Source: Syntrophales bacterium
Lineage (GTDB): Bacteria; Desulfobacterota; Syntrophia; Syntrophales; PHBD01
Length of the DNA stretch: 64,000 nt
Assembly (NCBI GenBank): GCA_963668175.1
Contig: OY764159.1
Location: forward strand, 3,552,001 to 3,616,000
Direction of reading: 5' to 3'
Positions 2,565 to 54,043 of this stretch are shown here, piece by piece. The notes below the pieces were generated by a model, which made no database searches, was not told the origin of the DNA, and worked only from the letters and a program-made list of their open reading frames with translations. Within the stretch, counting starts at the first letter, position 1; each line of letters begins with the position of its first letter. A program made the position numbers and the translations under genes.

Positions 2565-2622
2565 GGCACGCTGGCACCCCATTGATCAGGGACAGTTTGT
2601 TATTTTGAAAGGAGCACGGAAA

Positions 2623-8668: not shown

Positions 8669-8690
8669 AGCGTTAAAGGAGAAGTAAGTT

Positions 8691-28556: not shown

Positions 28557-28563
28557 GGCAACC

Positions 28564-31359: not shown

Positions 31360-31362
31360 GCT

Positions 31363-32349: not shown

Positions 32350-32365
32350 GGCTGCCGTTCTTCCC

Positions 32366-34893: not shown

Positions 34894-34994
34894 AAGTCTT
34901 TTCCCTGAGTTTCCCCTTCCTCAATGTGTCCCCGGGGCAGTTTCCGATGCGTCGTACGGTCGAGCCGGAAGATGCTCACCCGAAGAGGTTGCTT

Positions 34995-35315: not shown

Positions 35316-35356
35316 AACCAAAACCTCCTTTTGCAGTTATCATTCGATTGGATTTG

Positions 35357-36799: not shown

Positions 36800-36822
36800 G
36801 AGCGATATCCTTGCGCGGCAAA

Positions 36823-37050
36823 TCAGCACTCCTTGGGATAATGTTCGGCGAGCACGATATACGTAGTGCTTCCGCTCGACCAATACTTCAGGACATCATC
36901 CGTGATGAGTTCCTTAACGACATTCTGAATGGCATGTCGGTCTTCATCGGGCAGCCATTTGACGACGTCCCTGATATAGAACATCTTCTTGTCTCCCTTC
37001 GATTTCTGGCGGAATGCATCCAATACCTTCGCCTTCAGAACATCATCCAT
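36823..37050 (-). CDS. dsrD: DsrD
   Basis: KMFYIRD and YWSSGSTT motifs, directly after dsrB. Confidence 0.93.
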   Translation of the reverse strand: MDDVLKAKVLDAFRQKSKGDKKMFYIRDVVKWLPDEDRHAIQNVVKELITDDVLKYWSSGSTTYIVLAEHYPKEC

Positions 37051-37056
37051 GATGGT

Positions 37057-38115: not shown

Positions 38116-38116
38116 A

Positions 38117-39307
38117 TCACTTCACCTCCTTTTGAATGTCTTCGGGCCAGAAGAAGACATAGGGGTTGGTTCTCGGGGCCTTGACCATCTGAGGTGCGGC
38201 GGGAAGCCCGACAGCCCGCAGGAAAGTTCTCATGCCCAATCTCTTGATCAGTTCGCCGACCCGCTCGCGGGATTTGCCGTTTTCACTCCACCAGTCCTGA
38301 ATCTTAACGATGAGGTCCTTCAATTCGTCGTAGGGCGGCTCAAGTTTCATGAAGGGTACGATCACCCAGGACAGAAGCGCCCCTTCCACGATCGGCGCTT
38401 TCCCGCCGATCAATATGGTTGCGCCCTTTTCCGCCCCCGGCCGCAGGGCTTTAGGCATCAGGTTGATGCAATGCATGCAGCGGGTGCAGTCCTCGTCATA
38501 GATTTTCAGAGTCTTGCCGTTCCAGACCATGCATCGCGTCGGACAAAGGTCGCAGACTTCCCTCTGAATATCGAGTCCGTCGGCTGCGTACGCGGCCACG
38601 GCTGCCTGATCGATCGGTATGTCTCCCTTCCACGTGCCGATGACGGCAAGATCTGAGCGGGCAATGGAAGCGACGCAGTCGTTCGGGCAGGCAGAGACTT
38701 TAATCTTGAACTTGTATGGGAACATGGGACGGTGGATCTCATCCTGGAAACTCATGGTCAAGTTATAGCAAACATCCAGACTGTCCACGCAGGCCCATTC
38801 GCAGCGGCCCGGTCCGACGCAGGCGCTCGGCGTGCGCAGGGCGGAACCGGACCCGCCGAGATCGAAGCCGGCCCCCGAGAGATCGTCGAAACATTCCTGC
38901 AGATGATCCGTCGTCGTGCCCAGAAGAATGATATCCCCGGTTGAGCCGTGCATGTTGGTAAGGCCGCTTCCGTGCTTTTCCCAAACGTCGCAAAGCTTAC
39001 GAAGCTTATCGGTCGTATAGAACCATCCCGTCGGGTGATTGACCCGCATGGTATGAAAGGCCTGTACGTTCGGAAATTCCTCGGGACGATCCGAATACCG
39101 TCCGATGACCCCCGAACCGTAACCCTTGACGCCGACGATGCCCCCGTGTTTCCAGTGGCCGATCTTCTCCTTGTAGGAAAGCTCCAGTTGCCTCATGAGA
39201 TCTTTGGCCATGGGGTTCTTCTCGGCAGCCTGCTTCATGTCGTCGACAAAACTCGGCCATTTTCCCCCTTCCAGTTGATCCAGAAGGGGCGTATCGGATT
39301 TAGGCAT
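38117..39307 (-). CDS. dsrA: Dissimilatory sulfite reductase alpha subunit
   Basis: [45 protein letters not shown]. Confidence 0.97.
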
Positions 39308-39340
39308 AATTTTCTCCTCCTCTGCTATTCTATCGGATCG

Positions 39341-40906
39341 TCATATCTTAGTCCAGTAATCAACAAAGACCATCGTCGACAACACAATGCCCAGCGGCAC
39401 ATTAACTATAACACCGACGGTGAAGGCCCAGAAAGGCTTCATGCCGAAGATGAGCATATCCTTGAAGCGCGTGGAAAGGCCGATGCAGAGGAAGCAGAAA
39501 ACAAAGGCCCATGACCGGAGGTTCTTGATCGGGCCGATCACGTCGGGACTTAAGACACTGTCGAACCAGTTGGAACTGGCCCGAAGCTGGTTCATGGCCA
39601 TCTCCTGATCCTTATCGGCGGCCGTCGCCAGTTTCTTCAGATCGTCGCCGGTCAAGACGCCCTTGTAAGAGAGGGCTTTCTTATCCATGTCGATTTTCAG
39701 ACGATCCGCATACTCGGGCGGCACCTGATATTTCGAAAAGTCCGCCTTGTAATCCTTCCCCTTGAATTTCCCTTCCCATTTGGCCTTGGCAAGATAATCC
39801 GCCGGTGCCGTCATCAGGCTGACGATGACGGACGCCGCAAGAAAGCCGAGCACGAATTTCGGGAACCGCTCCCAGATGATACCGCCCCCGACGGCACTTT
39901 TCTTCTCTCCCTCGCTTTTCTCCCAGAGCATGACCGAAACAATGGCCAGGATCAGGCACCATATTCCGATCCAGATATCCCGGCCGATGACCTTCATGAG
40001 AGTAAAGGTTTGTATCGGCGCGTCGCCGAATCGGCTGCCCAGTTCGGCGGCGACGGCAAACCCTGCCGCGTCGGCAAATTCCGATGTCCCGACAATGGCG
40101 CCGGCGACGCCCGGCGAGACGGACTGAGGAACAAGCTGCTTCAGGGCGATGGAGAGGGCGAAGATCATGACAATGGCCCAAACGGTGACGACGGCAATCG
40201 AAATAGATATATGTTCGTTTTTCGCCTTGACGGCTCCACCCACGGCAATCGACGCGGACACGCCGCAGACAGCTCCCCCTGCTCCCAGAACGGCGCCGAA
40301 TTGGGGCTCCAGTTTAAAAATCCTCGTTGCGGCAAAATAGATCGCAAGCCAGGTGACGACGGAGACGATAGTCGCCTGGATCATAGCGATGGGACCGGCT
40401 TTAATAATAAGAGTGAGGGGCAGCGTCGCTCCGAGGAGAACGATACCGGTTTTGATATAGTATTCCGTCCTCAGGGATACTTTCAGCCACGCGGGAATTT
40501 TCGTCACATTGGAGATGATAAGGCCGATGATGAGGGCGAGCAGCGGCGCTTCGATATTGAAATCCTGCATGAGCTTCCAACTGGCGAGATAAAAAATGAT
40601 CACCGAACCGACGAAAATGATGATATACCCGGGAATGAATTCCTTTAACTTGTGGCCCATGACCTTCATGGAAAAACTGAATATCACTCCGAAGAAAATA
40701 AAGATGGTGAGATATCCGGATGCATTCTTTGCCAGATCAGGCCAGATCTTGCTGAAATCGGACAGCTTGCTCGGCAGGACGGCCCACCCTTTTATGGATG
40801 TGCCGGACCACAGGGCGACAATAGCCAAGAGAACAATACCTAAACCAAGCCATACGGACCACCAGTCTTCCGTTTTCCAAAGCTTCTCGAAACCGCCGCC
40901 GTTCAT
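39341..40906 (-). CDS. YeiH/putative sulfate exporter (PSE) family membrane protein
   Basis: TEYYIKTGIVLLG, AVCGVSASIA, KVIGRDIWIG, CIGLSTRF. AAGGAG RBS. Confidence 0.85.
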   Translation of the reverse strand: MNGGGFEKLWKTEDWWSVWLGLGIVLLAIVALWSGTSIKGWAVLPSKLSDFSKIWPDLAKNASGYLTIFIFFGVIFSFSMKVMGHKLKEFIPGYIIIFVGSVIIFYLASWKLMQDFNIEAPLLALIIGLIISNVTKIPAWLKVSLRTEYYIKTGIVLLGATLPLTLIIKAGPIAMIQATIVSVVTWLAIYFAATRIFKLEPQFGAVLGAGGAVCGVSASIAVGGAVKAKNEHISISIAVVTVWAIVMIFALSIALKQLVPQSVSPGVAGAIVGTSEFADAAGFAVAAELGSRFGDAPIQTFTLMKVIGRDIWIGIWCLILAIVSVMLWEKSEGEKKSAVGGGIIWERFPKFVLGFLAASVIVSLMTAPADYLAKAKWEGKFKGKDYKADFSKYQVPPEYADRLKIDMDKKALSYKGVLTGDDLKKLATAADKDQEMAMNQLRASSNWFDSVLSPDVIGPIKNLRSWAFVFCFLCIGLSTRFKDMLIFGMKPFWAFTVGVIVNVPLGIVLSTMVFVDYWTKI

Positions 40907-41285
40907 ATCAGTCTCCTTTCTAGACAAGAAACCATTACGTTATTGGGACAGGTTCGTCCGGGTTAAGAAAAGGTTTAATGTGTTGAGAGACCCGCTGCGA
41001 TTAAAGATGCGAGAGAGCCGCAGGATTTGCAAGAGCGTTGTGCGTGATGTATCGCCTGAATAAATTATAAAGTACGGCATGTTGAAAAGGCAAGAAATTT
41101 TGTCTTTATAAATATTATATCATTTCAGATACTTGTCGGACGCTTTGGCGTTTTTTCTTCAAGAGTCTGACATTCTTATCGTGACGTCATTTTTCCATTT
41201 GGAAAAAACAGACAAAGCCGGTATGTAGTGTTTACCCCCTGGTTATGGATAAAACAACGGCGTTCTTCACAGGAGCAGAGAAGAT

Positions 41286-42653
41286 ATGACCGCCCAAGAC
41301 GTCCTTCGGAAAGTGACAAAGCAGGCTGTAAGGCCTTGCGCGCTCCTCTGGGACGAATCCCTGGTCTGGGGCTTAATGGCACAGCGAGCCTTGACGGACG
41401 CCGGACTTCCCTTCGACATCGTCACCGCGGCGGATATACGCCGGGGAAAACTCAAACGTTACCGCATGATCTTTATCCCGGGCGGATGGGCATCCGACAA
41501 GCTGGAAGCACTGGGAAAAGAAGGCCGCGAAAATATCCGGCAGTTTGTCGAAAATGGCGGAAGCTATTTCGGAATATGCGGAGGCGCCGGGATGGCCACG
41601 GAAGAAGGGCTCGGACTTCTGCCGGTTGTCCGCAAGCCGATGGCGGAAAGGGTCCCCAGCTTCAGCGGCGGCATTCGCCTTACCTGTGAGGAACATGCCA
41701 TCTGGAACGGCATCGACACGCCTGACTTTCATGCCTGGTGGCCGTCACAGCTGCAAGTTGCAGCCGGGGATGCAGACGTTCTCGCCGTGTACGAAAGTCC
41801 CCTGAATGATGCTTTCACTTCCGATATAGCGCTTGAATATGGCAAAGCAATCGGGTGGTCAGAGATGGAGCATAGTTACGGCATCCTTCTGGATCCCGCC
41901 CGCCTCCGGGGGGAACCGGCGGTGGTTGCGGGATGTTACGGCCTTGGCAAGGTCATCCTTTCCCTGATCCATTTCGACACGCCGGGCGATCGCAACGGCG
42001 CCATCGCCTTGAGAAACATATGGCATCTCTTGTCCTCATACGTTCCGTCGCATCATCAGGAAAACAGCGAACGGCCGACAAGCGAACCGACCACGAAGCT
42101 GTCACCGGAGTTATTTCAAACGACCGAGGAAATAAGAGAGACGGTAGAGGGGTTTGTGGAGTTCGGCGTTAGAAATTTCCTCTGGCACCGGCGGAATCCG
42201 CTGCTGCTCCAATGGCGGCGCGGCGTCAGGGGCATGGAATACTCGACCTTGATGGCAATGACAAGAGAGATTCTGGCATATGCCGCCATGCCGCATCATG
42301 ATCGTGAGCGGGTATCGAACAGGCAGCCGGGCTGCATGACGGAGACACAACTGAGAGATGCTCTCGCAGACATCAAGAAAAAACTGATCCCTTTTATCGA
42401 AAAGGCCGAGAAGCTCCTCGTCCGAGAACGGCTCTACATGCAATCCTCTTGCCTGTCGCCTTTGAACAGCGGGGACGAGGAGATCAACCGCCTCAGAAAG
42501 GAACTTTTCGCATCGGCGATGAGTCACGGAGGCGAGTTCAAATGCCTTATCGATGCGGTTGACCGCCTGCTCCTGAGACTGATGAAAGAAACCGGCACCA
42601 TTCAGCACCTGCCCGCCGGGAAGCCGCCTGACTTACCTGCCGCTGAATCTTGA
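41286..42653 (+). CDS. BPL-N / class I glutamine amidotransferase-like protein
   Basis: IFIPGG, FVENGGSYFGICGGA nucleophile elbow, GKVILSLIHFD. Confidence 0.75.
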   Translation: MTAQDVLRKVTKQAVRPCALLWDESLVWGLMAQRALTDAGLPFDIVTAADIRRGKLKRYRMIFIPGGWASDKLEALGKEGRENIRQFVENGGSYFGICGGAGMATEEGLGLLPVVRKPMAERVPSFSGGIRLTCEEHAIWNGIDTPDFHAWWPSQLQVAAGDADVLAVYESPLNDAFTSDIALEYGKAIGWSEMEHSYGILLDPARLRGEPAVVAGCYGLGKVILSLIHFDTPGDRNGAIALRNIWHLLSSYVPSHHQENSERPTSEPTTKLSPELFQTTEEIRETVEGFVEFGVRNFLWHRRNPLLLQWRRGVRGMEYSTLMAMTREILAYAAMPHHDRERVSNRQPGCMTETQLRDALADIKKKLIPFIEKAEKLLVRERLYMQSSCLSPLNSGDEEINRLRKELFASAMSHGGEFKCLIDAVDRLLLRLMKETGTIQHLPAGKPPDLPAAES

Positions 42654-42674
42654 GGACTGCTGCGGCTGCGGTCT

Positions 42675-42881
42675 TCACGGCCCCTTTGGGCCATCCGTCC
42701 TGTTCTTTCGCCGCCGGGGCGTCCGGATCGCGAGGGAGCGGAACGCGTCGCGGCTGTCCGTTTCCTTGATGCGTTTCATCATGTCGTCAATTTCTTCCTC
42801 ATCGATACTGCCGCGCTCTTCCATAAAATACCATACGGCGCTGCGGCCCGAATGCTTGCCCAGGACGATCCGGCCCGATCT
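42675..42881 (-). pseudogene. Fragment of a LeuA/NifV/CimA-family synthase
   Basis: Manual translation after an in-frame TAA gives RSGRIVLGKHSGRSAVWYFMEERGSIDEEEIDDMMKRIKE. IVLGKHSG is the post-catalytic motif of this family. No upstream start in frame. Confidence 0.6.
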
Positions 42882-43352
42882 TTATCGGGACGCAAATGAA
42901 AGCGATGTCCCGTTTGTCCAACAGCCGACAAATACCCTCCGGGTCCGGAAACCACGGACAGTCGACAATGCGGGAAGCAATAACAGGTATGCCCGTGCCG
43001 ATCGCTTTGCCCGCAATACCTCACCCATGCGGGAACGGCCCTTGCCATGTTCCTCAGACAGGAGGACTCCTCAATGATACATATTCTTCAAAAAGGAAAA
43101 TCGCGGGATGCTCCGTATCCTATATTGATTGACGCGGAGGAAAATAAGACGCTTTTATGGATGAGTTCGACATTTCTCACGCATGGTCGATTGCGCCCGA
43201 CTCTCTTTAGTCCGGCTGCTTGAGACATGAAGGATATTTCAAGGGTATTTAAAAACGACAGGACTTGCGGCACCAAAAGCGGTATATTACTTTTATTGCG
43301 GGGGCATGGGTCGGCTCGCGACGGCCCCGAAAAACGATTGTACGTGGTGCAG

Positions 43353-44726
43353 ATGGCGGCTTTCAACGAACAACGCATCGATGTGACGCAAGGGAATATC
43401 TGGACCGGCATCTGGAGACTCTCCTGGCCGATGCTGGTCATCATGATCTTCAGTTTCCTCGTCGGCTTTACCGACGTCTACGTCGCCGGGTTCTTGGGTC
43501 CCGACGTCCAGGCGGCCGTCGGTTTCGCCACGCAGATATTCTTCCTCGTCGTCATCATTGCCAATGCCATCGCCATCGGCACGCTTGCATTGATATCGCG
43601 CGCCATCGGCGCCGGGGACGGGGAACGGGCGGTCGCCGTCGCCAAACAGTCCCTCATCCTCAGTTTCCTGATCGCCGTCGCCATCACGGCCGTCTGTCTC
43701 CTATTTTACCGCAGCATCATTGCCGTTGCGGGTTTCCCGGAGCCCATCAGGATCATCGCCGAAACATTCATCAGAATTTTTGCCTTCGCCCTGGGAGCCC
43801 ATTACATTCTCATCGTCTCCAACGCCGTCTTCCGCGCCAGCGGCGAAGTGAACAAGCCGCTCGTCACGATGATCATCATCTGCATCGTCAACATCGTCCT
43901 CGACTTCTGCCTCGTCTTCGGCATCGGCCCCTTTCCCAGACTAGGCTATGCCGGGATCGCTTTTTCAACCGCCATCGCCACCATCTCTGGAACCTCCGTC
44001 AACCTTCTTTTTCTTGCCAAAAGTCCGCGTTGGCGGGCCGTCTACGGCAGGCCGTTCGCCCTGTCACTGGAGACCGTCAAGACGATCCTCGGCATCGGAT
44101 GGCCTGCAGCCTTTCTGCAGATCGCCTGGAACCTGACCAGCATCGCCCTCTACAATATCCTGGGGAGACTTCACGAATCGAGCATCGTCGCCCTCGCGTC
44201 CCTCACGAACGGCCTGAGAATCGAAGCGATTATCTATCTTCCCGCTTTCGCCCTCAATATGGCCGCATCGGTCGTTACGGGCCAGAATCTCGGCGCAGAA
44301 GATCCTGACCGCGCTGAAAGGATGTGCTGGAAAATAGCCCTGGCGGGTGTCGGGATCAGCGGCGCTATGGCCCTGGTGATCTTTGTCCGGGCGGAGCAAT
44401 GCGCCGCCGTCTTGACTGCAGACCCGGCCGTCATCGCGGAAACGGCGAGGTACCTCAGGTACAATATGATCGCCGAACCCTTCCTCGCTTTGAGCACGGT
44501 CATGGGAGGGGGCCTGCAGGGGGCCGGCGACACCCGGGGGACCATGTGGGTGATCGTCGTCTCCATGTGGCTGGTCCGGCTTCCGCTCGCATCGTTTCTT
44601 GCGATTGTGATGGGATGGGGAGCACCGGGCGTATGGACCGCCATGCTCGTTTCCATGATCTGCCAGAGCATCATGATGGCCTGGTGGTTCAGGCTGGGGC
44701 GATGGAAAAAGTTAAAATTGCATTAA
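43353..44726 (+). CDS. MATE-family efflux transporter
   Basis: About 12 TM helices; LSWPM, NIVLD...GYAGIA, GQNLGA, GAGDT. Confidence 0.92.
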   Translation: MAAFNEQRIDVTQGNIWTGIWRLSWPMLVIMIFSFLVGFTDVYVAGFLGPDVQAAVGFATQIFFLVVIIANAIAIGTLALISRAIGAGDGERAVAVAKQSLILSFLIAVAITAVCLLFYRSIIAVAGFPEPIRIIAETFIRIFAFALGAHYILIVSNAVFRASGEVNKPLVTMIIICIVNIVLDFCLVFGIGPFPRLGYAGIAFSTAIATISGTSVNLLFLAKSPRWRAVYGRPFALSLETVKTILGIGWPAAFLQIAWNLTSIALYNILGRLHESSIVALASLTNGLRIEAIIYLPAFALNMAASVVTGQNLGAEDPDRAERMCWKIALAGVGISGAMALVIFVRAEQCAAVLTADPAVIAETARYLRYNMIAEPFLALSTVMGGGLQGAGDTRGTMWVIVVSMWLVRLPLASFLAIVMGWGAPGVWTAMLVSMICQSIMMAWWFRLGRWKKLKLH

Positions 44727-44786
44727 GGACGCGGAAGGGATTATTCTTTCTTGAGAGATTCCAAGGCGGGAAGAGAGGAGGACTCC

Positions 44787-46004
44787 ATGCTGACACTGTT
44801 CAATTCCCTTGGTAAAAAGATGGAAGTATTTACGCCCGTCAACGCCGGTGTCGTGAATATCTTTACTTGCGGCCCTTCGGTTTACCAGCGGGCCCACATC
44901 GGCAACCATCGCACCTTTCTCTTCGAGGACATCCTGGTCCGATACCTGGAATACTCGGGATACAAGGTCCGCCGGGGCATGAATTTCACGGACATTGAGG
45001 ACAAGGCCCTGATCGAGGCCCATAAGAGAAAGATGCCTCTTGCCGCCCTGACTTCAGCGAACATTGAAACCTTCCTGGGCGAGATGAAGGCGCTCAGGAT
45101 GAAGGTGCCCGATTATCTGCCCCGCGCCTCGGAGCATGTGGACGAGGCCCTCCGGATCATCGACCGGCTCATCGAAAAGGGCGTCGCCTACCGCCACGGC
45201 GGCAACGTCTATTTCGATCCGCTGAAATTCCCCGGTTTCGGGAAGATCTACGGCCTCGACATGACGACATGGCCTGCCAGGAGGGTCCGATTCCACCGGG
45301 ATACATACAACGGGCTCCGCTGGAACCGGGGCGATTTCATCCTCTGGCACGGCTGCGGGACCGCGGACCGCGTCTGCTGGGATTCGTCCGTCGGCAGCGG
45401 CTGGCCCGCCTGGAATATCCAGGACCCGAGCATGGTCGGCCACTATTTCGACGAGACGTTGTCCGTCTATTGCGGCGGCATCGACAATCTCATCCGCCAT
45501 CACGATTACTCCGCCGCCGTGCTCGAATCGATCCGGCCCTATCCGATGGCGAAGTTCTGGCTTCACGGCCAGCATCTCTTCGTCAACGGCAGGAAAATGT
45601 CCAAGAGTACCGGCAATCTCCTCTACACGGACGAACTCGAAAAGCAGGGATATAACATGGAGGAAATCCGCTTCTTCCTCGTCTACGGCCATTATCGGAA
45701 TCGTATGAATTATCGGGATCGGACTATGGAAGAAAGGGCGAATCTTCTGAGGAACATCAAGAAACGGATTGGAGCGATAGGCGCGGTGGCCGGCGGCAAG
45801 GCGGAAACGCAGGGGGATGCAGGCCTCAAGTTGAAAGAGATTTTCAGGATACGCATGGACGACGACCTCGATGTGAAGGGAGCCGTCGACGGCATCGGCG
45901 ACATTCTGATGAAAACGTATCCCGATCGGCTTAAGGCAGGTGAAGCGACATCCCTTATGGAGGCCGTCAAGGAAATCGACGGCGTCCTGCAGGTTCTGCT
46001 TTAA
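44787..46004 (+). CDS. Divergent cysteinyl-tRNA-synthetase-like protein lacking the C-terminal anticodon-binding domain
   Basis: CGPSVY, HIGN, NFTDIEDK, DFILW, KMSKS, MDDDLD. Zn-site motifs are altered; 405 aa. Confidence 0.85.
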   Translation: MLTLFNSLGKKMEVFTPVNAGVVNIFTCGPSVYQRAHIGNHRTFLFEDILVRYLEYSGYKVRRGMNFTDIEDKALIEAHKRKMPLAALTSANIETFLGEMKALRMKVPDYLPRASEHVDEALRIIDRLIEKGVAYRHGGNVYFDPLKFPGFGKIYGLDMTTWPARRVRFHRDTYNGLRWNRGDFILWHGCGTADRVCWDSSVGSGWPAWNIQDPSMVGHYFDETLSVYCGGIDNLIRHHDYSAAVLESIRPYPMAKFWLHGQHLFVNGRKMSKSTGNLLYTDELEKQGYNMEEIRFFLVYGHYRNRMNYRDRTMEERANLLRNIKKRIGAIGAVAGGKAETQGDAGLKLKEIFRIRMDDDLDVKGAVDGIGDILMKTYPDRLKAGEATSLMEAVKEIDGVLQVLL

Positions 46005-46099
46005 GGAACGTTTTACGGATCGGCCGATGCGACGGCACTGCTGCAATAATATCTACCGGGGTCGATACGGAACGGAATGTAAAGGACGGGGGCCTATCG

Positions 46100-47128
46100 T
46101 CATGGGCCCGACGAGGGGGCTCGCTCATCGATCTTGACTTCGGGCGGCTTGGGCCTGTTTTTTCTCTGATTCACCAGGTTCTGCCTGTACTGAACGTAGG
46201 CATCGCGGACCGCTACATAGGGGTCGATGGCGGCCTGTTTGAGAGATTCATAGTCTCCCAGCGTGAGGGAGACATCGTTCAGCTTCTGATAGCTCCTGAC
46301 GGGCAGCCAGAAATACCACGGTTCAAGATATGAAACGGGATAGAGGAAATACTCCCCTACAAAACCCACCGAATCGCGCGGACTGGAGGGCCCGAGCACC
46401 GGCCACATGATGAAGAACCCATGTCCGATCCCGTAAACGCCCAAGGTCTGCCCGAAATCGACATCCTGCTTTTTGAGATTGATTTCCGGCAAGGAGGCGG
46501 GATCGAAAAAGCCTCCGATCCCCATCGTTGTATTGACAACGAACCGCCCTAATTCCGTCCCCGTGCATTTAAGGTCCGCCTGCAGGAGGCAGTTGGCAAA
46601 GCGGATCGGAAAGTAGAGGTTGGAAAAGAAATTCTGGATGCTGACCCTGAAGCCTTCGGGAGCAATTATATTGTACCCTTGGGCCACGGGCTTCATCACC
46701 CAAAAGTAGAGTCTATCATTGAAAGTGAACATGGCCCGGTTGAAGGATTCGATGGGATCGGAAACCGGTGCAGCCAATGCATTCTCATCCTGCACGTCTT
46801 TCTTCGCCGGGACGTCCTGGGCGGCTGGGCCGACGTCGTCTTCCTCTTTATAATCGCTTAAGTCCTGTTTTTCCTCCCGGCCAGACTTCTGGGCGGTCGA
46901 GGAAGCTTCTTTTACACCGACGGCTTCGCCCTTGGGGTTCACCGCCGTGCCGGACGGGTCTGGCGTAAGCGTTTCCTGCTTTGCAATAACCGGCGCCGGC
47001 TGGGCAGGGGACGGCTGCGGAAGAGGCGTACGGTTAGGGTCATGGGCGCATCCCGTGGCGAGAATAAACGGCAGAAGCATCATTCCGAGTAAACGTTTCA
47101 CCAAGGGGATGTCCATATCAGTCTTCAC
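46100..47128 (-). CDS. mlaA: VacJ/MlaA lipoprotein
   Basis: Lipobox LATGC, DPIESFNRAMF, RFVVNTT, DFGQTLG, GPSSPRD, DPYVAVRDAY. Confidence 0.93.
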   Translation of the reverse strand: MKTDMDIPLVKRLLGMMLLPFILATGCAHDPNRTPLPQPSPAQPAPVIAKQETLTPDPSGTAVNPKGEAVGVKEASSTAQKSGREEKQDLSDYKEEDDVGPAAQDVPAKKDVQDENALAAPVSDPIESFNRAMFTFNDRLYFWVMKPVAQGYNIIAPEGFRVSIQNFFSNLYFPIRFANCLLQADLKCTGTELGRFVVNTTMGIGGFFDPASLPEINLKKQDVDFGQTLGVYGIGHGFFIMWPVLGPSSPRDSVGFVGEYFLYPVSYLEPWYFWLPVRSYQKLNDVSLTLGDYESLKQAAIDPYVAVRDAYVQYRQNLVNQRKNRPKPPEVKIDERAPSSGP

Positions 47129-47149
47129 TTCCGTGAAACATCGTCCACG

Positions 47150-47749
47150 TCAATCCTTTTGCGATTTAACTTTATCGCGTAGGATCTGAAGCAGTTGATC
47201 GGGTGAATTTTTTGCCAGGATGTCGTTGAACTGGGTTCGGTAGTTCATGACCAGGCTGATGTTCTCAACGACCACGTCGTACACCTTCCAGGTGCCGTTT
47301 GCAAGAATCATCCGATAGTAAATAGGGACCTCCTTCGAAGCGGTGACAATCTTGGTCTGGACCTCGACCTGGTTGCCGGAGAGAGGCAACTCTTTCGTGA
47401 ATACGACTTTCTCGTTGCTGTACGAGAGGATTCTGTCGGCATAAGCCTTTTCCAGGATCTGGTGGAAGAGATGAACGAATTCCTTCCTCTGGGATTCGTT
47501 AAGCCTGTTCCAGTTCTTCGCCAGAGTCCGCTTGGCGAGTTCGACTTCATCGAACATGGCATTGTATATGACCGTCAGTTTCTGTATTTTCTGTTCCTTC
47601 GCCGAAGCCGCCTTGAGCTTCGGATCGCGGAGCACTTCAAATACTTTATTGACGTTGACCTGAACGGTATCCAGCGGCACGCCGCCATATACCGGCAACG
47701 ACGCTAAAAAGACGACGATAACGATCAATCCTGCAACCCGCGTTTTCAT
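47150..47749 (-). CDS. mlaC: MlaC/Ttg2D periplasmic phospholipid-binding protein
   Basis: WKVYDVVVENISLVMNYRTQF and a signal peptide. Confidence 0.92.
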   Translation of the reverse strand: MKTRVAGLIVIVVFLASLPVYGGVPLDTVQVNVNKVFEVLRDPKLKAASAKEQKIQKLTVIYNAMFDEVELAKRTLAKNWNRLNESQRKEFVHLFHQILEKAYADRILSYSNEKVVFTKELPLSGNQVEVQTKIVTASKEVPIYYRMILANGTWKVYDVVVENISLVMNYRTQFNDILAKNSPDQLLQILRDKVKSQKD

Positions 47750-47777
47750 GAATGACCCCCTTTTTGCAATTCCTTGA

Positions 47778-48239
47778 CTATTGCTGCTGCTTCTTCACGT
47801 CCCCAAAGGCATACTTGGCTATAAGATCCGAGATATTCACGGCCGGCTGCGTTTCGGTGATGGTATCTCCCGGTTTGAGGAGGTTGCCCGCCCCTCCGGG
47901 TTCGATGCTGAGGTACATGTCGCCGATCAGCCCTTCCGTCTTGATGGAGGCAATAGCATCGTCATAGATATTGATGCCCTTCTTAATCCTCATTTCAACT
48001 ACGGCCGTCTGGGTTTTTTGGTCCATACTGAGGTTTTCCACCCGCCCGACCTCTATTCCCGCAATATAAACAATGCCTCCGACCCGTAAGCCCGTTACCG
48101 ACGTGAAACGGCCGAACAGCGAATAGGAATTGTCGCCCAGAAAATTGAAATGGCCGAGCTTGACCGTCATGTAGCCTATGCAAAGCAGACCGATCACCAG
48201 AAAGATACCCACTGTCGTTTCCATACTGTATTTCTTCAT
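47778..48239 (-). CDS. mlaD: MlaD MCE-domain protein
   Basis: ETTVGIF, GLRVGG...GIEVGRV, IKTEGLIGDMYLSIEPG. Confidence 0.93.
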   Translation of the reverse strand: MKKYSMETTVGIFLVIGLLCIGYMTVKLGHFNFLGDNSYSLFGRFTSVTGLRVGGIVYIAGIEVGRVENLSMDQKTQTAVVEMRIKKGINIYDDAIASIKTEGLIGDMYLSIEPGGAGNLLKPGDTITETQPAVNISDLIAKYAFGDVKKQQQ

Positions 48240-48243
48240 TTGC

Positions 48244-49503
48244 TCACACCTCCGCGGCACATCTGAGCCTGCCGATCTCTTTCTGTTTCATTCTCGCCAA
48301 TTCGATAACAGCCTCTAACTCCTCGATGGGCCTGCCCTCCGCCAGTCCGGCGCGAACGATCAAGTCAACGCATTCACCCGCATTCAAATGGTTATGGGCG
48401 CCATCCATGATTTTGCGAATGCCCTGATCCTGCAAATCGGCGATAAAATCCTTCAGGATGTCCTCGGCCTCCGCAAGATTGGAGTAAGGCAGAATTGTCA
48501 CGAATTCATTGAGGCTGCTGCGTGTCGAAAAGCCGCCGATGGCGCCGAAATGCTTGTTGATATACTCGCCCATGGCGAACAACGTCTCCTGGGCGACATC
48601 GTGGCCGAGGACGGTGACGACGGCATCGAGGGCGATCAGCGTGAAAACGACGATCGCGTAAGTCTCCTCGCGGGCGCCATGCTGCTTTAAAAGATGATAG
48701 TATTGGGCATTGAACTGATGCTTCGAGTAAAGCCCCGTCAGTTCCTTCTGCAATCCTTCCAGGCTCTTGATCACTTCGTCTTTGAAGGGATGGTCGAAGT
48801 ATTCCAGTTCTTCGGGCGTGCCCTGAAAAACGATGGAACGGTCGTAAAGGGCGAGAATACGATTGGAAATGAAGTAGACATCCGGAATCTCGTGGCTGAC
48901 GACAACGGCCGTGAAGCCGAATTTCCTCTGATACTGGGCGATCATACCGAGAATGGCGTTTTTCCTGATAGGGTCCTGTCCGGACGTGGGCTCGTCGAAA
49001 AGAACGATCTGCGGCTCGGTCACCAGCGCCCTCGCCAGGGCCACCCGCTTCTGCATGCCTCCGGACAGTTCGGAAGGATATCTATAAGCAGCATCCGTGA
49101 GTTCCACCTGCTCCATCCTGGCCGCAACCATGCGTTCTATTTCACTTTTCTTCAGATTGGTTGTTTCTCTGAGCGGCAAGGCAATGTTGTCGACAACGCT
49201 CATGGAATCGAACAGGGCGTTGTCCTGGAACATATAACTCATTTTTGCCAGAAAAGCGGACCTCTCATTTTTTTTCATATCGGCGATGGGCCTTCCCCGG
49301 AAGAGAATTGTCCCCTCGTCGGGTTTCAAAAGCCCGATAATATGTTTTAAAAGGACGCTCTTGCCGCCGCCGGACAGGCCGATGATCGTCGTGACCTGCC
49401 CTTCGAATATCTTGAGATTGACCTGATCGAGGACGGTCCGGTCTCCAAAGCGTTTGGTGACATTCTGGAATTCAATTAACGGCGTTTCCATGGGCTCCTT
49501 CAC
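48244..49503 (-). CDS. mlaF: MlaF ABC ATPase with a C-terminal degenerate GGDEF-like domain
   Basis: GLSGGGKS, FQDNALFDS, LSGGMQKRV, DEPT. About 170 extra residues follow, starting ELTGLYS. Confidence 0.85.
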   Translation of the reverse strand: MKEPMETPLIEFQNVTKRFGDRTVLDQVNLKIFEGQVTTIIGLSGGGKSVLLKHIIGLLKPDEGTILFRGRPIADMKKNERSAFLAKMSYMFQDNALFDSMSVVDNIALPLRETTNLKKSEIERMVAARMEQVELTDAAYRYPSELSGGMQKRVALARALVTEPQIVLFDEPTSGQDPIRKNAILGMIAQYQRKFGFTAVVVSHEIPDVYFISNRILALYDRSIVFQGTPEELEYFDHPFKDEVIKSLEGLQKELTGLYSKHQFNAQYYHLLKQHGAREETYAIVVFTLIALDAVVTVLGHDVAQETLFAMGEYINKHFGAIGGFSTRSSLNEFVTILPYSNLAEAEDILKDFIADLQDQGIRKIMDGAHNHLNAGECVDLIVRAGLAEGRPIEELEAVIELARMKQKEIGRLRCAAEV

Positions 49504-50360
49504 ATCAAGAACGACGTCACGACGTAGTCGGACACCAGGATAAGCACACAGGATACAACGACCGCCGACGTCGTGGCAAGACCGACCGCCTTGGCCCCGT
49601 GGCTGTCGGTCCTCATATGGGCGAAATACCCCTGGTAACAGCAGACGGTGGAAACGATGAAGGCAAAGACCACGGCCTTGATGAGGCCGTCCGTGACATC
49701 CTTCATGGCCATGCTGGCCTGGATACGGTAAAAATAGGTGCCGGCGTTGGCCCCAAGAATCAGGACTCCGGACAGATAGCCGCCGACAATACCGATGAGG
49801 TCGAAGATAGCCGTAAGCAGCGGAAAACTGATAACGGCCGCCGCTATCCTCGGGCTTACAAGAAACCGGAGGGGATCGATCCGCATGGTCTCCAGGGCGT
49901 CGATCTGCTCGGAGATTCTCTGGATGCCGATCTCGGCGCTGATGGCCGATCCGGCCCTGGCGGCGATCATGATGGCCGTAAGGACCGGTCCCAATTCCCG
50001 GACAAGAGAGAGGGAAACCAGTATCCCCAAAGCTCCCTGGGCGCCGACTTTGACCAGGGCATAGTAGGATTGAAGACCGAGGACCATGCCGGTGAACAGA
50101 CCGACGAGCATGATGATCATCATGGACCTCGCCCCGATGTGATAGATCTGCTGAAATATCTTGGACATCTGTTTCGGCCGGAAGATCTTCACGAGCGCCA
50201 GCACAAGAAAGATCGCCGAAGCGCCGAGATGATTGCTCCAGTTAATGGCGGTTCTGCCGAAGAACGCAAAAGGCTGAGACAATGCCACCGCAATGGATTT
50301 CCCTGCTGTGTCTTCGGCGCTATTCATGTCCGTATAGGAGGGGGTTGGAGAAGATCCCAT
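49500..50360 (-). CDS. mlaE: MlaE permease
   Basis: RELGPVLTA, RAGSAISAEIG, EQIDALETM, VGLATTSAVV. Confidence 0.94.
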   Translation of the reverse strand: MGSSPTPSYTDMNSAEDTAGKSIAVALSQPFAFFGRTAINWSNHLGASAIFLVLALVKIFRPKQMSKIFQQIYHIGARSMMIIMLVGLFTGMVLGLQSYYALVKVGAQGALGILVSLSLVRELGPVLTAIMIAARAGSAISAEIGIQRISEQIDALETMRIDPLRFLVSPRIAAAVISFPLLTAIFDLIGIVGGYLSGVLILGANAGTYFYRIQASMAMKDVTDGLIKAVVFAFIVSTVCCYQGYFAHMRTDSHGAKAVGLATTSAVVVSCVLILVSDYVVTSFLM

Positions 50361-50839
50361 CGACCATCATATCCTTTTCGTAAGCAGATTCCTTCTCGTT
50401 CATCTCTCTTTCTGCTGATCAGCAGCCCATTAGCCTGTTAATATATATCCAATTTTATATTTATTTCAAGTAGGCAAAGCGTCTTTATCACATTTCGCGC
50501 CGCGTCAATGAAAAAAGATGTCATTTTTCGTTAAGTCACTGAGAAAAATGAAAAAACAGACATGGAAATCAACAAAAGAAGGTTGTCCGGCGTATACGTA
50601 CCTCCTCGTTCAGGGAATAATCGCCGACACACAGCGGAAGGCGATCCCTACCAAGCCGCCATGAAGCCATACCCGCCTGCCGCTCCCCGGTAGCTTGAGC
50701 CGGTCCATTTCTCCTGCGAGTATATCCTTGAGTGCGGCACTTTTTTAAAGGGAATCCGGCCCACCCGGGCAGGGATGGGAATCCCGACCTGGAAGGACCG
50801 GACGAAAGAAAGGGATTATTGGCGTGAATATTGATGATT

Positions 50840-51658
50840 CTATTTAAGCGGAACGAAACCTTCTTTCTGAACGATCTTCTGTCCGGCAGGCCCCAGAAGG
50901 AATTTGATGAAATTCGCCGTTTCGCCGGCAGGCTTACCGTTGGTGTACATGAAAAGGGGACGGGCAACCGGATACGATTTATCGAGGGCCGTCTTGGCGG
51001 ATGCCGTCACACCGTTGACTGTAAGCCCTTTAATCGATTTGTTGAGGTAACCGATACCGATATAGCCGATGGCATAGCGATTCTTGGAAACGGCCTGGAC
51101 AACGGCTCCGTTCGATGCCTGCAACTGGGCCTTAGGCGTTACCTTCGCGCCGCTCAGGACCAGGTGCCCCCACGACTCGAATGTGCCCGAACTGCTGTCT
51201 CTCGATACGACTACAATGGCCAGATCGTCGCCGCCCACCTCTTTCCAGTTCGTGATTTTGCCCTGGTATATCTGGCTCAACTGATCGATGGACAACCCTT
51301 TGACTTTATTCTTGGGATTGACGATAGGGACGATGGCATCGATGGCTACGATATGCTCCATCGGATTGACACCTTTGGTCTTTGCCAGTTCGATTTCCTC
51401 TTTCTTCATGTCGCGGGATGAATTTGCGATATCCGTCGATTTATCGATCAGCGCCTTGATGCCGTCTCCTGAACCGCCGCCCGACAGAGAGATATTGATG
51501 CCGGGATGGGCCTTCATATACGCCTCCGAGGCCGCCTGGGCGATCGGAAGCACGGTCGTCGATCCTTTAATGACCACCGTACCTGCGGCCATCACGGGCA
51601 GCTGCCCCGCGAGGAACATAGCCATGGCCAGAATGATTGTCCTGATTGCTTTCGTCAT
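50840..51658 (-). CDS. pstS: Phosphate ABC transporter substrate-binding protein
   Basis: GSTTV, GGSGDG, SSR, RDSSSGT, YPVARPLFMY. GGAGG RBS. Confidence 0.93.
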   Translation of the reverse strand: MTKAIRTIILAMAMFLAGQLPVMAAGTVVIKGSTTVLPIAQAASEAYMKAHPGINISLSGGGSGDGIKALIDKSTDIANSSRDMKKEEIELAKTKGVNPMEHIVAIDAIVPIVNPKNKVKGLSIDQLSQIYQGKITNWKEVGGDDLAIVVVSRDSSSGTFESWGHLVLSGAKVTPKAQLQASNGAVVQAVSKNRYAIGYIGIGYLNKSIKGLTVNGVTASAKTALDKSYPVARPLFMYTNGKPAGETANFIKFLLGPAGQKIVQKEGFVPLK

Positions 51659-51700
51659 AATGCTTCTCCTCCGTTTTTTGGCAATAATGTAATGGAACAT

Positions 51701-51739
51701 TGTTGCAGTTTGATGAAGGTATCGTGAAATATCCGTGAA
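51701..51739 (-). promoter_or_regulatory. Pho-box-like array upstream of pstS
   Basis: Minus strand reads TTCACG gatat TTCACG atacc TTCATC aaact GCAACA, then 9 nt and TACATT (-10-like). Confidence 0.8.
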
Positions 51740-51991
51740 GAAGCAAGACGGTGAATCCTTGACAGGACATTCCGTTTATATTAGGACCCGGAAAAGGCTC
51801 TTTTACGGCAGGGACCGCCGACCGACAGGCCCATGCTGAAGATTATGGCCGGCGGGGAAGACGTCAATGCCCCGTACTGAGACAGGGATAAAGGAAGCGG
51901 ACATGGATGTATTCCGAACATTTTCCGGCATGTAAAGATTGGGACCTTTCTTCCGTACGCTGAATAAAATTCGCTCATGTGATTATTCCAG

Positions 51992-54043
51992 ATGACAGAC
52001 TTGACAAAATTCACAGCCGGCCGCACCTTTTTACTGATCTCCTTGTTTCTCGTGATCTTAACCTGCGGCGTCTATCTCCAGGTGAAGGATCATCAATTCA
52101 TCAACTACGACGATACGGATTATGTCGTCAGTAATGCCCACATCCGTTCTGGATTCACCCAGCCTGCCATACGATGGGCTTTTACGACCACGTATTTCAG
52201 CAACTGGCATCCCCTGACGTGGCTTTCCTATATGCTGGATTACCGTCTGTTCGGTTTGAAAGCGGGCGGCTATCATCTCGTCAATCTTCTTTTCCATGTT
52301 TTGAATACGCTGCTCCTCTTTTATCTTCTGAACCGGATGACCCATGCCGTATGGCGGAGCGCCGCAGTCGCAGCCCTTTTCGCCCTGCACCCCACCCATG
52401 TGGAATCCGTAGCATGGGTTTCGGAGCGAAAAGACGTCTTAAGCACGTTTTTCGGCCTGGCGGCCATTGGAGCCTACATTTTCTACGCAGCCAAACCCGG
52501 ATTAAAAAGATATTGGCCGGTTGTTTTGCTTTTCGTTCTGAGTCTCATGGCCAAGCCGATGCTGGTCACGCTGCCTTTCGTGCTGCTGCTTTTCGATTAC
52601 TGGCCCTTGAAGCGTTATCAGCCGCTGAAAATAGCAGCAGTCGAGGAAAAAGGGGAAGCTGAATCAGAACCCGCAAGAAAAGGCGGCAGGAAAAAGAAGA
52701 CGGATAAGCCTCGGCACAACACGCCAGTTGCCAAAGCACCGAAGCATGAAACGATCCGTATCGACTGGTCGACGGCAGGCAGGCTTTTGCTGGAGAAAGT
52801 TCCTCTTTTCATTCTTTCCGGCCTTTCCTGTATTGTAACCTATATTGCCCAGGCCAAGGGCGGGGCCATCGCCAGCTTCCAGGCCATTTCCTTTGCAGAC
52901 CGCCTGCAGAATGTCGTTCTTTCTTATGCGCGGTACATCCTGAATACCGTCTATCCCGTGAAGCTTGCTTATTTCTATCCGCAGCTTACGGCCTTTCCCG
53001 TCTGGAAGGTTGCCGGATCGCTTCTGCTTATCATCCTGATGACGGCATTCGCCTTGAGATGGATCAATCGCCGTCCCTATCTTGCCGTCGGATGGCTCTT
53101 CTTCCTCGGAACCCTGGTGCCGGTGATCGGCCTGGTGCAATTCGGATCCCTGTCCATTGCCGACCGCTACCTCTATCTCCCGGGTATCGGCCTTTACATC
53201 ATGGCCGTCTGGGGGATCTGCGATTTATCGGCAGGATGGCGGAAAAGAAGGATCATCCTCGGAATATCGAGCGGCATTGTCATTGCAACGTTGGCCGTCA
53301 TGACCTTTACCCAGATTGAAAAATGGAAGAACAGCGAGACGATTGCCACCCATGCCCTAAACGTTACAAACAACAACCACTCGGCTTATTTCAGCCTGGG
53401 ACTCGTCGCTTTGGGACAGGGACAAATAGATAAGGCCGCCGCCTATTATGAAAAGGCCCTGCAAATCGCACCCGCCAATACCGTTTATCTGAACAATATG
53501 GGCAACATCATGCAGCGCCTGGGCCGAAAACAGGAAGCCATGGCCTATTACCTGGAATCGCTACGATATTATGCCGACAACTCCGAAGCCCACTTCAACC
53601 TGGCGCATCTTCTAGCCGAACAGGGGCGGTATCAGGAAGCGGAAAGTCATTATCGGACGGTCGTCGACCTTGATCCTGACGACTATATCGCCTGTACGAT
53701 GCTTGCCGATGCTTTGGCCGCCCAGGGAAAAACCGACGACGCCCTGAAATACTATTCTCAAGCCCTCAGACAAAAAGAGGCTCTACCCAGCGTTCACTAT
53801 GCCATGGGGAGGATACTATTCGAAAGAGGCAGGCCCGACGAAGCGGCCCGATCTTTTCAGCGAGCGGTCCTTTTGAACCCCGGCAGCGCTCCGGCACATC
53901 ATTATCTCGGAAGGGCCCTTCTTGCGCAGGGGAAGTACGACGAAGCCGTTGTTCAGTTTCAGGAAGCCCTGCGCATTCAGCCGGGCAGCGAAAGCACGAA
54001 GAGGTATCTGGCAGAGGCCCTGTCGAAAACCAGGAACAGATGA
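51992..54043 (+). CDS. TMTC-like GT-C membrane glycosyltransferase with C-terminal TPR repeats
   Basis: NYDD, WHPLT, HPTHVESVAWVSERKDVL, ADRYLYLP, followed by multiple TPRs. Confidence 0.82.
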   Translation: MTDLTKFTAGRTFLLISLFLVILTCGVYLQVKDHQFINYDDTDYVVSNAHIRSGFTQPAIRWAFTTTYFSNWHPLTWLSYMLDYRLFGLKAGGYHLVNLLFHVLNTLLLFYLLNRMTHAVWRSAAVAALFALHPTHVESVAWVSERKDVLSTFFGLAAIGAYIFYAAKPGLKRYWPVVLLFVLSLMAKPMLVTLPFVLLLFDYWPLKRYQPLKIAAVEEKGEAESEPARKGGRKKKTDKPRHNTPVAKAPKHETIRIDWSTAGRLLLEKVPLFILSGLSCIVTYIAQAKGGAIASFQAISFADRLQNVVLSYARYILNTVYPVKLAYFYPQLTAFPVWKVAGSLLLIILMTAFALRWINRRPYLAVGWLFFLGTLVPVIGLVQFGSLSIADRYLYLPGIGLYIMAVWGICDLSAGWRKRRIILGISSGIVIATLAVMTFTQIEKWKNSETIATHALNVTNNNHSAYFSLGLVALGQGQIDKAAAYYEKALQIAPANTVYLNNMGNIMQRLGRKQEAMAYYLESLRYYADNSEAHFNLAHLLAEQGRYQEAESHYRTVVDLDPDDYIACTMLADALAAQGKTDDALKYYSQALRQKEALPSVHYAMGRILFERGRPDEAARSFQRAVLLNPGSAPAHHYLGRALLAQGKYDEAVVQFQEALRIQPGSESTKRYLAEALSKTRNR

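Follow-up and report, generated by a model that had tools for sequence, protein, structure and literature searches.

The cysteinyl-tRNA synthetase (CysRS) of Escherichia coli holds zinc through four ligands, which we take to be Cys28, Cys209, His234, and Glu238 (the numbering was checked on our alignment). MshC (3C8Z, 8HFM), which is derived from CysRS, has ~410 amino acids and no anticodon domain; it is the cysteine:GlcN-Ins ligase of mycothiol biosynthesis and is found in Actinomycetota with the mycothiol genes. MshC uses cysteine, and its site holds zinc by three ligands. We analyzed a stretch of 64,000 nucleotides from a Syntrophales bacterium (GenBank assembly GCA_963668175.1, contig OY764159.1, positions 3,552,001 to 3,616,000; hereafter the window, whose coordinates are used throughout), in which a paralog of CysRS, P0001, is encoded at 44787..46004 on the forward strand. 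The family to which P0001 belongs is a distinct and undescribed CysRS-derived subfamily of class I ligases of ~405 amino acids, which is neither cysS, nor MshC, nor the CysRS* of Desulfobacterales.

CysRS* is described as a second CysRS of Desulfobacterales without an anticodon domain and with an altered CP domain; CysS* is encoded downstream of the selC* tRNA(Cys) gene and selB*, and CysRS* was proposed to serve this dedicated selC* tRNA(Cys) (Mukai et al., 2017; PMC5389517). According to the same report and to a later review, CysRS* itself was inactive in E. coli, and activity was shown for an engineered mimic alone (PMC5389517; PMC9437257). GluQRS (YadB), which is listed in Table 1 of that review (PMC9437257), is a truncated class I paralog of GluRS without an anticodon domain, which glutamylates the queuosine of tRNA(Asp) and still acts on tRNA; it comes from another parent synthetase, and its likeness to the present family would be one of analogy alone. 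The Zur-regulated CysRS paralogs of beta- and gamma-proteobacteria are second copies tied to metal stress; they retain every zinc ligand, and their genes are found together with zur, znu, and COG0523 genes (Haas et al., 2009; PMC2770081). A literature search that left subscription journals largely uncovered found no description of the family of P0001; it covered the paralogs of CysRS, its truncated forms and proteins resembling it, the ligands of zinc, and the taxa of the hosts, and yielded MshC, CysRS*, and the Zur-linked paralogs.

The Gene and Its Product

The reading frame of P0001 has 405 codons followed by a stop, with zero internal stops. A Shine-Dalgarno-like GGAGGA (44777..44782, +), read from the sequence, lies 4 nt 5' of the ATG at 44787, and an alternative TTG start at 44751, 36 nt upstream of the ATG, would add 12 residues. 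Because of this GGAGGA and because the relatives mostly have 403-406 amino acids, the ATG is likely the start. An earlier note, made from the letters of the window, had given the same coordinates, with which the open frame, the ribosome-binding site, and the length of the relatives agree.

The CysRS catalytic domain of Pfam (tRNA-synt_1e) matches residues 15-316 of P0001 (E=1.8e-69), and the top solved relatives found by HMMER are cysteine-tRNA ligases (8qhp, 9e-64; E. coli 1li5, 3.3e-53), the MshC structures being far weaker matches (1e-31). The AlphaFold2 model, which was built on an alignment of 119 rows, has a mean pLDDT of 95.0 and a pTM of 0.94. By Foldseek, it resembles CysRS 8qhp and 1u0b with TM scores of 0.88-0.89 (0.86-0.89 over the CysRS structures) and MshC with 0.83-0.85. 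With canonical CysRS (E. coli 1LI5/1U0B), the protein shares 29-32% identity, the stem-contact fold, and the helical bundle. P0001 scores 286.5 bits on the cysS model TIGR00435, an NCBIfam equivalog with a cut-off of 340 bits, and the match runs from position 1 to position 401 of the 466 in the model. Beyond the column of E. coli residue 390, P0001 has just 6 residues, as compared with 72 in E. coli CysRS. The chain thus stops once the helical bundle is complete and lacks the alpha/beta anticodon-binding domain, as had been read in the earlier note.

Remodeling of the Metal Site

Relatives were taken from a scan of species-level genomes (one genome per species), in which 143 of 185,579 genomes matched; the best 80 of these 143 loci, with 43-79% identity, were analyzed. 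The paralog reading frame was called in 80 of the 81 stretches (80 loci and the window) and not in L061. The family alignment (n=77) holds the query and 76 locus reading frames of at least 380 amino acids; the window's own frame and four fragments of 152-374 amino acids from the 81-member paralog cluster were left out. As the canonical set, we took 117 full-length CysRS from an exhaustive search of 50% representatives; they are those most similar to the query, and the comparison with the 76 family rows is biased in that direction.

In the HMMER alignment of P0001 with 1li5, GWPAWNIQD (205-213) stands opposite GRPGWHIEC (201-209) of E. coli, and SVYCGGIDNLIRHHDYS (226-242) opposite DIHGGGSDLMFPHHENE (222-238). 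The equivalents of Cys209 and Glu238 are Asp213 and Ser242, whereas His234 is kept as His238 and Trp205 as Trp209, and Thr68 is also kept. Both replacements and the loss of the two ligands had been claimed in the earlier note, and the alignment bears them out, as it does the retention of HIGN, KMSKS, and the first Cys (CGP). The retained ligand and the HIGH-type motif lie at 44868..44906 (+; Cys28-Gly-Pro-Ser ... His37-Ile-Gly-Asn40), and Cys28, His37, Gly39, and Asn40 are each present in 77/77; the KMSKS loop, Lys270-Ser274 (E. coli 266-270), lies at 45594..45608 (+) and is likewise kept in 76-77 of the 77. P0001 thus has the two motifs and the catalytic fold that mark cysS. Of the four zinc ligands it keeps Cys28 and His234, position 209 being Asp and position 238 being Asn, Thr, or Ser in the family.

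The segment Trp209-Asn-Ile-Gln-Asp213 (45411..45425, +), equivalent to Trp205-His-Ile-Glu-Cys209 of E. coli, is almost fixed (Trp, Gln, and Asp 77/77; Asn 75/77). The same is true of the first five residues of Arg237-His238-His239-Asp240-Tyr241-Ser242 (45495..45512, +), equivalent to Pro233-His-His-Glu-Asn-Glu238, in which Arg is found in 75/76 and His-His, Asp, and Tyr in 77/77. At E. coli position 238, Asn (29), Thr (28), and Ser (18) prevail among the 77 members, the figures for the 76 family rows being 30, 26, and 18; Glu238 is present in 117/117 canonical rows and in 0/76 family rows. As compared with canonical CysRS, the family carries Asp for Cys209, Asn/Thr/Ser for Glu238, Asn for His206, and Gln for Glu208, and further Tyr/Phe/Ala for His224, Arg for Pro233, Tyr for Asn237, and His for Lys185. 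A family-specific motif, His188-x-Cys190-x6-Cys197 (45348..45377, +), lies in the CP domain (His 75/76, Cys 73/76, Cys 70/76), and its counterparts are found in 0/117, 1/117, and 1/117 canonical CysRS; its role might be that of a redox switch or of a metal knuckle new to the fold.

With residues called diagnostic when present in at least 95% of the family and in less than 10% of the canonical rows, the family is marked by Ser31, Arg63, Ala74, Ser115, Phe151, a Trp162-Pro163 insertion, Thr173, Gly176, Trp179, and Gly182, and further by Ile185, His188, Cys190, Asn210, Gln212, Asp213, Arg237, Asp240, Tyr241, and Tyr280. Neither the family nor canonical CysRS varies at 39 positions, which include the ATP contacts and the alpha-amine contacts (Gly29 and Thr68); in E. 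coli numbering, Cys28, Gly29, Thr68, Trp205, His234/235, Asp229, and KMSKS are among them. The extra conserved Cys residues of the family are 190, 197, and 229. Two candidate marks were rejected on the canonical set. Asn40 of HIGN, a motif that the earlier note had listed as kept, is ordinary (94/117 canonical representatives), and Cys229 (E. coli position 225), considered as a compensating ligand, is matched by Cys in 21/117.

Family, Distribution, and Phylogeny

A word-indexed protein search gathered 4398 proteins at E<=0.001; all 120 of the best matches listed have 385-446 amino acids and 59-74% identity, with at least 95% of the query covered. JGI names them "cysteinyl-tRNA synthetase", and NCBI names them "class I tRNA ligase family protein". 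By record title, 58 of the 80 loci are bacterial (29 Thermodesulfobacteriota, 17 Nitrospirota, 9 "Deltaproteobacteria", 2 Myxococcota, and one with a Pseudomonadota label) and 22 are archaeal (16 Bathyarchaeota, 3 Thermoplasmatota, one Methanocella, and 2 unassigned). The key substitutions are fixed in 75-77 of the 77 members, which span 43-79% identity and two domains of life, and such fixation across a large family is therefore far beyond chance. This conservation check also answers the concern, raised in the earlier note, that the gene might be a decaying copy. The closest relative among the loci (L037, 8001-9217; 79% identity in the best segment), from a Smithella metagenome-assembled genome (MAG), is split into two overlapping frames (8001-8798 and 8759-9217) by a frameshift or an assembly error.

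All five members scored fall below the cysS cut-off (P0001, 286.5 bits; L046, 309.2; L049, 304.5; L021, 297.8; L039, 335.4), which the controls pass (E. coli, 668 bits; P0132, P0136, P0138, and P0150, 456-507 bits). More than 30 residues beyond E. coli column 390 are found in 0/76 family rows as compared with 117/117 canonical rows, and in the precomputed domain assignments the anticodon-domain Pfams PF09190 and PF23493 occur on canonical matches and not on family matches. The family lies outside cysS because it departs from three defining features, namely the score cut-off, the anticodon domain, and the four zinc ligands; it lies outside MshC because of the MshC score cut-off and context, and outside CysRS* because of its context.

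Both of our trees are unrooted and were built without any MshC sequence, and some of the short representatives in them are possibly gene fragments. FastTree (208 rows) separated 84 rows from 124 with a support of 98; the 84 are 76 rows with the family signature and 8 others without the anticodon domain, and the 124 are the 117 canonical rows and 7 scattered short rows. For IQ-TREE (LG+C20 PMSF, short search), 67 of these 208 rows were used (30 family, 5 without the anticodon domain, 10 best-scoring canonical, and 22 random canonical; the very long P0172 was omitted). The family and the divergent member P0128 were set off by a branch of 0.66 with an SH-aLRT of 100, and all 32 canonical rows lay on one side of a branch with an SH-aLRT of 99. 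The phylogeny with CysRS proposed in the earlier note thus gives one clade. Together with the scores below the cut-off and the missing anticodon domain, this upholds its view of a CysRS paralog, one that is conserved and non-canonical.

Between the family and canonical CysRS stand representatives of ~405-413 amino acids without the anticodon domain (P0133, P0135, P0152, and P0147). The first three have normal zinc ligands and cysS scores of 354-393 bits, above the cut-off, while P0147 is a half-way form (WNVQC ... HHENT) with 278.5 bits, below it. Because intermediates without the domain still have a normal zinc site in this unrooted tree, their sequences suggest that the anticodon domain was lost first and that the site was rebuilt later. 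Within the family tree, Syntrophobacteraceae are placed among archaeal clades and the Methanocella copy inside Bathyarchaeia, and this interleaving is the pattern of a transferred accessory gene. A plasmid tblastn search found just ordinary cysS with <60% identity, and neither family members nor MshC. Longer, fused family forms were sought and none was found, which is weak evidence.

Does the Site Still Take Cysteine?

Loss of two zinc ligands was read in the earlier note as a probable change to a different substrate or to a non-tRNA acceptor. The loss stands; the step from it has only partial support and is contradicted in part. Asp209 also occurs in 2/117 full-length representatives (P0159 and P0267), both of which keep Glu238 and the anticodon domain and pass the cysS cut-off with 486.6 and 457.7 bits. 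In a PDB sequence search with residues 195-265 alone, MshC of M. smegmatis (8hfm) reads PHHEYSAAHAES opposite RHHDYSAAVLES of the query, the canonical sequence being PHHENEIAQSE. MshC (PHHEYSAA) thus has Tyr-Ser after His-His and no Glu238 equivalent, as in P0001, while it keeps WHVEC with the equivalent of Cys209, where the family has Asp. Because MshC uses cysteine with the same Tyr-Ser, a thiolate-binding three-ligand site is a simpler reading than a new substrate. No family row departs from Cys28, His238, or the Trp that packs against the thiol. A Cys/Asp/His metal site that would bind the thiolate is the most economical reading of these sequences, and cysteine or a close thiol is probably still the amino acid.

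This likeness to MshC is not matched by a special kinship at the level of the whole protein. On the MshC model TIGR03447 (equivalog cut-off 485.1 bits), P0001 scores 159.1 bits and four other members 161.7-191.2, and the ratio of MshC to cysS score is ~0.53-0.62 in the family as compared with 0.48-0.61 in eight full-length CysRS scanned; the similar ratios therefore indicate no special kinship to MshC. In the CP region, MshC was absent from the matches at E<=10, and a search with the N-terminal sub-region was likewise without MshC. The hosts also differ, MshC being actinomycetotal and the family being found in Thermodesulfobacteriota, Nitrospirota, and archaea.

RNA or Small-Molecule Acceptor?

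The catalytic core, taken as all residues as far as E. coli column 390, is strongly basic in the 76 family rows, with a median isoelectric point (pI) of 9.08 and a net charge of +9; for the 117 canonical rows the values are 5.96 and -8. The basic gain is mostly in the CP domain (+6.5 vs. -2 in canonical CysRS), then in the stem-contact fold (+5 vs. +3), and in CysRS both of these face the acceptor arm of the tRNA. Eight conserved basic positions were gained in the family and two lost, while the 11 shared with canonical CysRS are all kept. Basic cores, with a median pI of 9.4, are likewise seen in 15 further rows that lack the anticodon domain; these include representatives with a normal zinc site, and three of them are divergent family members (L040, L053, and P0128).

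The missing anticodon domain does not exclude tRNA, because CysRS*, which also lacks it, was proposed for a dedicated tRNA. Delta-proteobacterial sulfate reducers are among the carriers of CysRS*. As compared by the published description of CysRS*, the family differs in that no tRNA gene is adjacent in the window or the 80 loci, the neighbors in the window being MATE and MlaA. The PTVS motif given for the CP domain of CysRS* (PMC5389517) was looked for in 13 representatives that lack the anticodon domain and is absent from all of them. The precedent of CysRS*, the basic CP domain, the Tyr-Ser of MshC, and Asp209 in cysS-passing proteins are together the reason why we do not follow the earlier note from ligand loss to a new substrate or acceptor. 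We place RNA slightly ahead as the acceptor, at rather less than even confidence; a small amine is possible, on the doubtful side.

Gene Neighborhood

Neighborhoods were compared among the reading frames of the 80 loci and of positions 36001-54000 of the window, grouped by BLASTP, and representatives of recurrent clusters were scanned with Pfam and NCBIfam. The gene directly upstream of the paralog encodes a MATE efflux transporter (43227..44726, +; Pfam MatE, 1.1e-47; NCBIfam matE, 231 bits), which is likely an operon partner; the gap between them is 60 nt and contains no terminator-like site. A MATE gene is adjacent and on the same strand in 20 of the 80 loci, the window included. It is directly upstream in 19 (Syntrophales, Nitrospirota, and the window), and in the remaining one, of a Thermoplasmatota archaeon, directly downstream with a 4-nt overlap.

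In 15 loci of the Syntrophobacteraceae type, the gene directly upstream encodes a CNNM/CorC-type protein, which in NCBIfam matches best to PaeA, an exporter of polyamines, with 299 bits and thus short of the cut-off of 500. Upstream of this gene are an HPF-cold-shock fusion (14 loci) and an alpha/beta-hydrolase-OsmC fusion. In 15 others, of Bathyarchaeia and Methanocella, a PrxQ/Bcp-type thiol peroxidase is directly upstream, with a gap of -8 to 35 nt in 14 and 243 nt in the fifteenth. An MFS transporter is directly upstream in 2 loci and within three genes in 4; a Fe/Mn superoxide dismutase (SOD) lies 2-3 genes upstream in 4, YchF within four genes in 5, and a ribosome-hibernation factor of another family and a CDF cation exporter are nearby in 3 each. 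An Hsp20 gene is also among the nearby stress genes. No biosynthetic partner (glycosyltransferase, deacetylase, and acetyltransferase included) recurs across lineages in the neighbor clusters, and the neighbors vary by lineage. This theme of export and stress fits an auxiliary enzyme induced by stress as well as an enzyme whose product is exported or protects the cell. The comparison of neighborhoods suggested in the earlier note has brought out a theme and made no decision between the two. Shared operators were sought with k-mers in front of the MATE, PrxQ, CNNM, and HPF genes; the search turned up just an extended -10-like TGGTAGAAT in 7-8 of 20 MATE upstream regions, and no clue to a regulator.

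Proximity to a dsr cluster had also been pointed out in the earlier note, and the window annotation agrees. The whole cluster (dsrAB, dsrN-like, dsrC, and DsrMKJOP-like) occupies 27369-39307 on the reverse strand, with dsrC at 34998-35321, a dsrN-like amidase gene at 35360-36883, and dsrB and dsrA at 37057-39307 (all -), and dsrA is 5.4 kb from the start of the paralog. In 14 Syntrophobacteraceae-type loci (L045, L050, L056, L058, L061, L063-L065, L067, L073, L074, and L077-L079), dsrB, dsrN, or dsrC lies 4.9-7.4 kb upstream on the same strand as the paralog; their paralogs belong to the other subclade, with 43-47% identity to the query. In the fetched stretches of the remaining 66 of the 80 loci, no dsr gene was seen. 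Because two lineages are too few and were counted after the first case had been seen, this proximity is no basis for a functional link. A YeiH/PF03601 membrane protein of 528 amino acids (39341-40927, -) adjoins dsrA and has no relative in the 80 loci.

Other genes of the window are mentioned in passing. A convergent mlaFEDCA-like operon (46100-50360) makes MlaA an immediate neighbor of the paralog, and the MlaF-type ABC ATPase in it (48244-49503, -) has a C-terminal GGDEF-like domain (Pfam, 2.4e-07). Two genes upstream of the paralog, a reading frame of 455 amino acids (41286-42653, +) has a short BPL_N-like (glutamine-amidotransferase-like) Pfam match, no NCBIfam match, and no relative in the 80 loci. 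An HpaB/4-hydroxybutyryl-CoA-dehydratase-type protein (2503-4095, +) and a family III CoA-transferase (8691-9986, +) are encoded near a branched-chain amino-acid ABC transporter, and such genes are typical of syntrophs that degrade fatty acids or aromatics. Elsewhere, a full-length MetRS gene (cluster 17) is present in nine fetched stretches (L042, L043, L046, L048, L051, L057, L068, L069, and L070), and in six Bathyarchaeia loci the paralog is followed by it at a distance of three genes, which probably reflects synteny within the lineage.

Possible Functions

The reading that we favor, tentatively, is that of a cysteine-activating ligase with a three-ligand metal site and an RNA acceptor, acting as a stress-linked auxiliary enzyme. 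A metal held by Cys28, Asp213, and His238 would bind the thiolate of L-cysteine or a close thiol analog, as in the three-ligand site of MshC, and an aminoacyl-adenylate would be formed. The aminoacyl group would then be passed to an acceptor recognized without reading of an anticodon, for which the acceptor end of an RNA resembling tRNA(Cys) is the most likely candidate; the basic surface of the CP domain and stem-contact fold would hold it. Such an enzyme would work beside the housekeeping CysRS, and an auxiliary role under stress would fit the neighbors, which are efflux pumps, peroxiredoxin, SOD, OsmC, and ribosome-hibernation genes. Several observations weigh against this reading. ARAGORN found no tRNA gene in the 64-kb window and, in the 80 loci, just two tRNA-Gln and one tRNA-Pro, each 5.1-7.6 kb away and none beside the paralog; Rfam gave no match in the window and, in 8 loci, two of those three tRNAs alone, with no tRNA-Sec. 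The basic surface could equally suit an anionic small acceptor or a membrane. In about half of the loci the paralog is directly behind an exporter (MATE 20, PaeA-like CNNM 15, and MFS 2 of 80), which suits a product that is made and exported. Finally, Glu208 is replaced by Gln (76/76) and Glu238 by Asn, Thr, or Ser, and Arg237 (75/76) and Tyr241 (76/76) are new; this shift of charge, seen in the sequences, could instead point to loss of the metal. Within the favored reading, we regard one special case as rather improbable, namely a zinc-sparing or oxidation- or sulfide-resistant backup CysRS, induced by stress and working on tRNA(Cys). The hosts of the family live in sulfidic, low-zinc habitats, a carboxylate replaces one thiolate ligand, and oxidative-stress and ribosome-hibernation genes are close by. 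The three extra conserved Cys residues (190, 197, and 229) are, however, unlike a protection from oxidation. The Zur-regulated CysRS paralogs (PMC2770081) provide a precedent for a backup, but one that keeps its zinc ligands, while the family has lost such ligands and shows no zur, znuABC, or COG0523 among its annotated recurrent neighbors.

An exported product would suit a close rival of this reading, a tRNA-independent amide ligase like MshC, which would join cysteine to a small-molecule amine (e.g., a polyamine or an amino sugar) and give a low-molecular-weight (LMW) thiol or an exported metabolite. Besides the MshC-like size, the lack of an anticodon domain, the TM scores of 0.83-0.85, and the Tyr-Ser shared with 8hfm, the exporters directly upstream are of the organic-cation type, and PrxQ/Bcp in 15 archaeal loci and SOD, OsmC, and Hsp20 nearby would go with a thiol. 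We nevertheless consider it somewhat unlikely, as no partner gene that would make the acceptor or finish the product recurs across lineages, the MshC scores (159-191 vs. 485) show no special kinship, the strongly basic CP domain is unexplained, and no fusion naming an acceptor was found (weak evidence). In a bolder form, which is unlikely, the family may be a second, independent MshC-like invention, a ligase of cysteine or another sulfur amino acid that would make a novel LMW thiol or an exported cysteinyl-amine conjugate; glutathione-poor anaerobes (Syntrophales, Syntrophobacteraceae, Nitrospirota, Bathyarchaeia, and Thermoplasmatota) would be its hosts, and the adjacent peroxiredoxin and cation/polyamine exporters its partners. 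A changed specificity, with the metal lost and Arg237, Tyr241, Asn210, and Gln212 forming an oxyanion pocket for cysteate, cysteine sulfinate, S-sulfocysteine, or O-phosphoserine, would make sense of two acidic site residues turned into neutral hydrogen-bond donors, of the new Arg and Tyr, and of genes of sulfite chemistry (dsrB, dsrN, or dsrC) 4.9-7.4 kb away in the window and 14 Syntrophobacteraceae-type loci. It is quite unlikely all the same. Cys28 and His238 are invariant (76/76), Asp is a good metal ligand, the thiol-packing Trp is found in 77/77, the Tyr-Ser is also that of the cysteine-using MshC, and the stretches fetched for 66 of the 80 loci contain no dsr gene; many hosts (Bathyarchaeia and Smithella-like) are not known as sulfite reducers. 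The catalytic motifs, which are all intact, and catalytic-domain-only clusters of the ESM Atlas (~394-426 amino acids, several phyla, named Cys-tRNA ligase), which indicate that short forms may serve as CysRS somewhere, could point to a minimal housekeeping or only CysRS. This is very improbable in view of the patchy spread (143 of 185,579 species genomes), the interleaving of bacteria and archaea in the tree, the five of five members under the cysS cut-off, and the absence of Glu238 from all 76 family rows. Decay or inactivity is scarcely credible: the split frame of L037 is in its favor, but P0001 has an intact frame, a good ribosome-binding site, a length of ~405 amino acids kept among relatives, fixed motifs, and a model with a pLDDT of 95.

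Implications

For genome annotation and for counts of cysS copies in MAGs, the family is a warning, because the only labels that its members carry are "class I tRNA ligase family protein" and, in error, cysteinyl-tRNA synthetase. The family is large, under strong selection, and shared by mostly anaerobic bacteria and archaea of methanogenic and sulfidic habitats, and its Cys/Asp/His site without Glu238 is a natural experiment on the metal-based selection of cysteine. Synthetase paralogs without an anticodon domain have repeatedly carried new chemistry, as seen in MshC for mycothiol, in GluQRS for tRNA modification, and in CysRS* with its proposed UGA recoding. The present family may likewise be a route to a novel thiol or to a novel use of tRNA in little-studied anaerobes.

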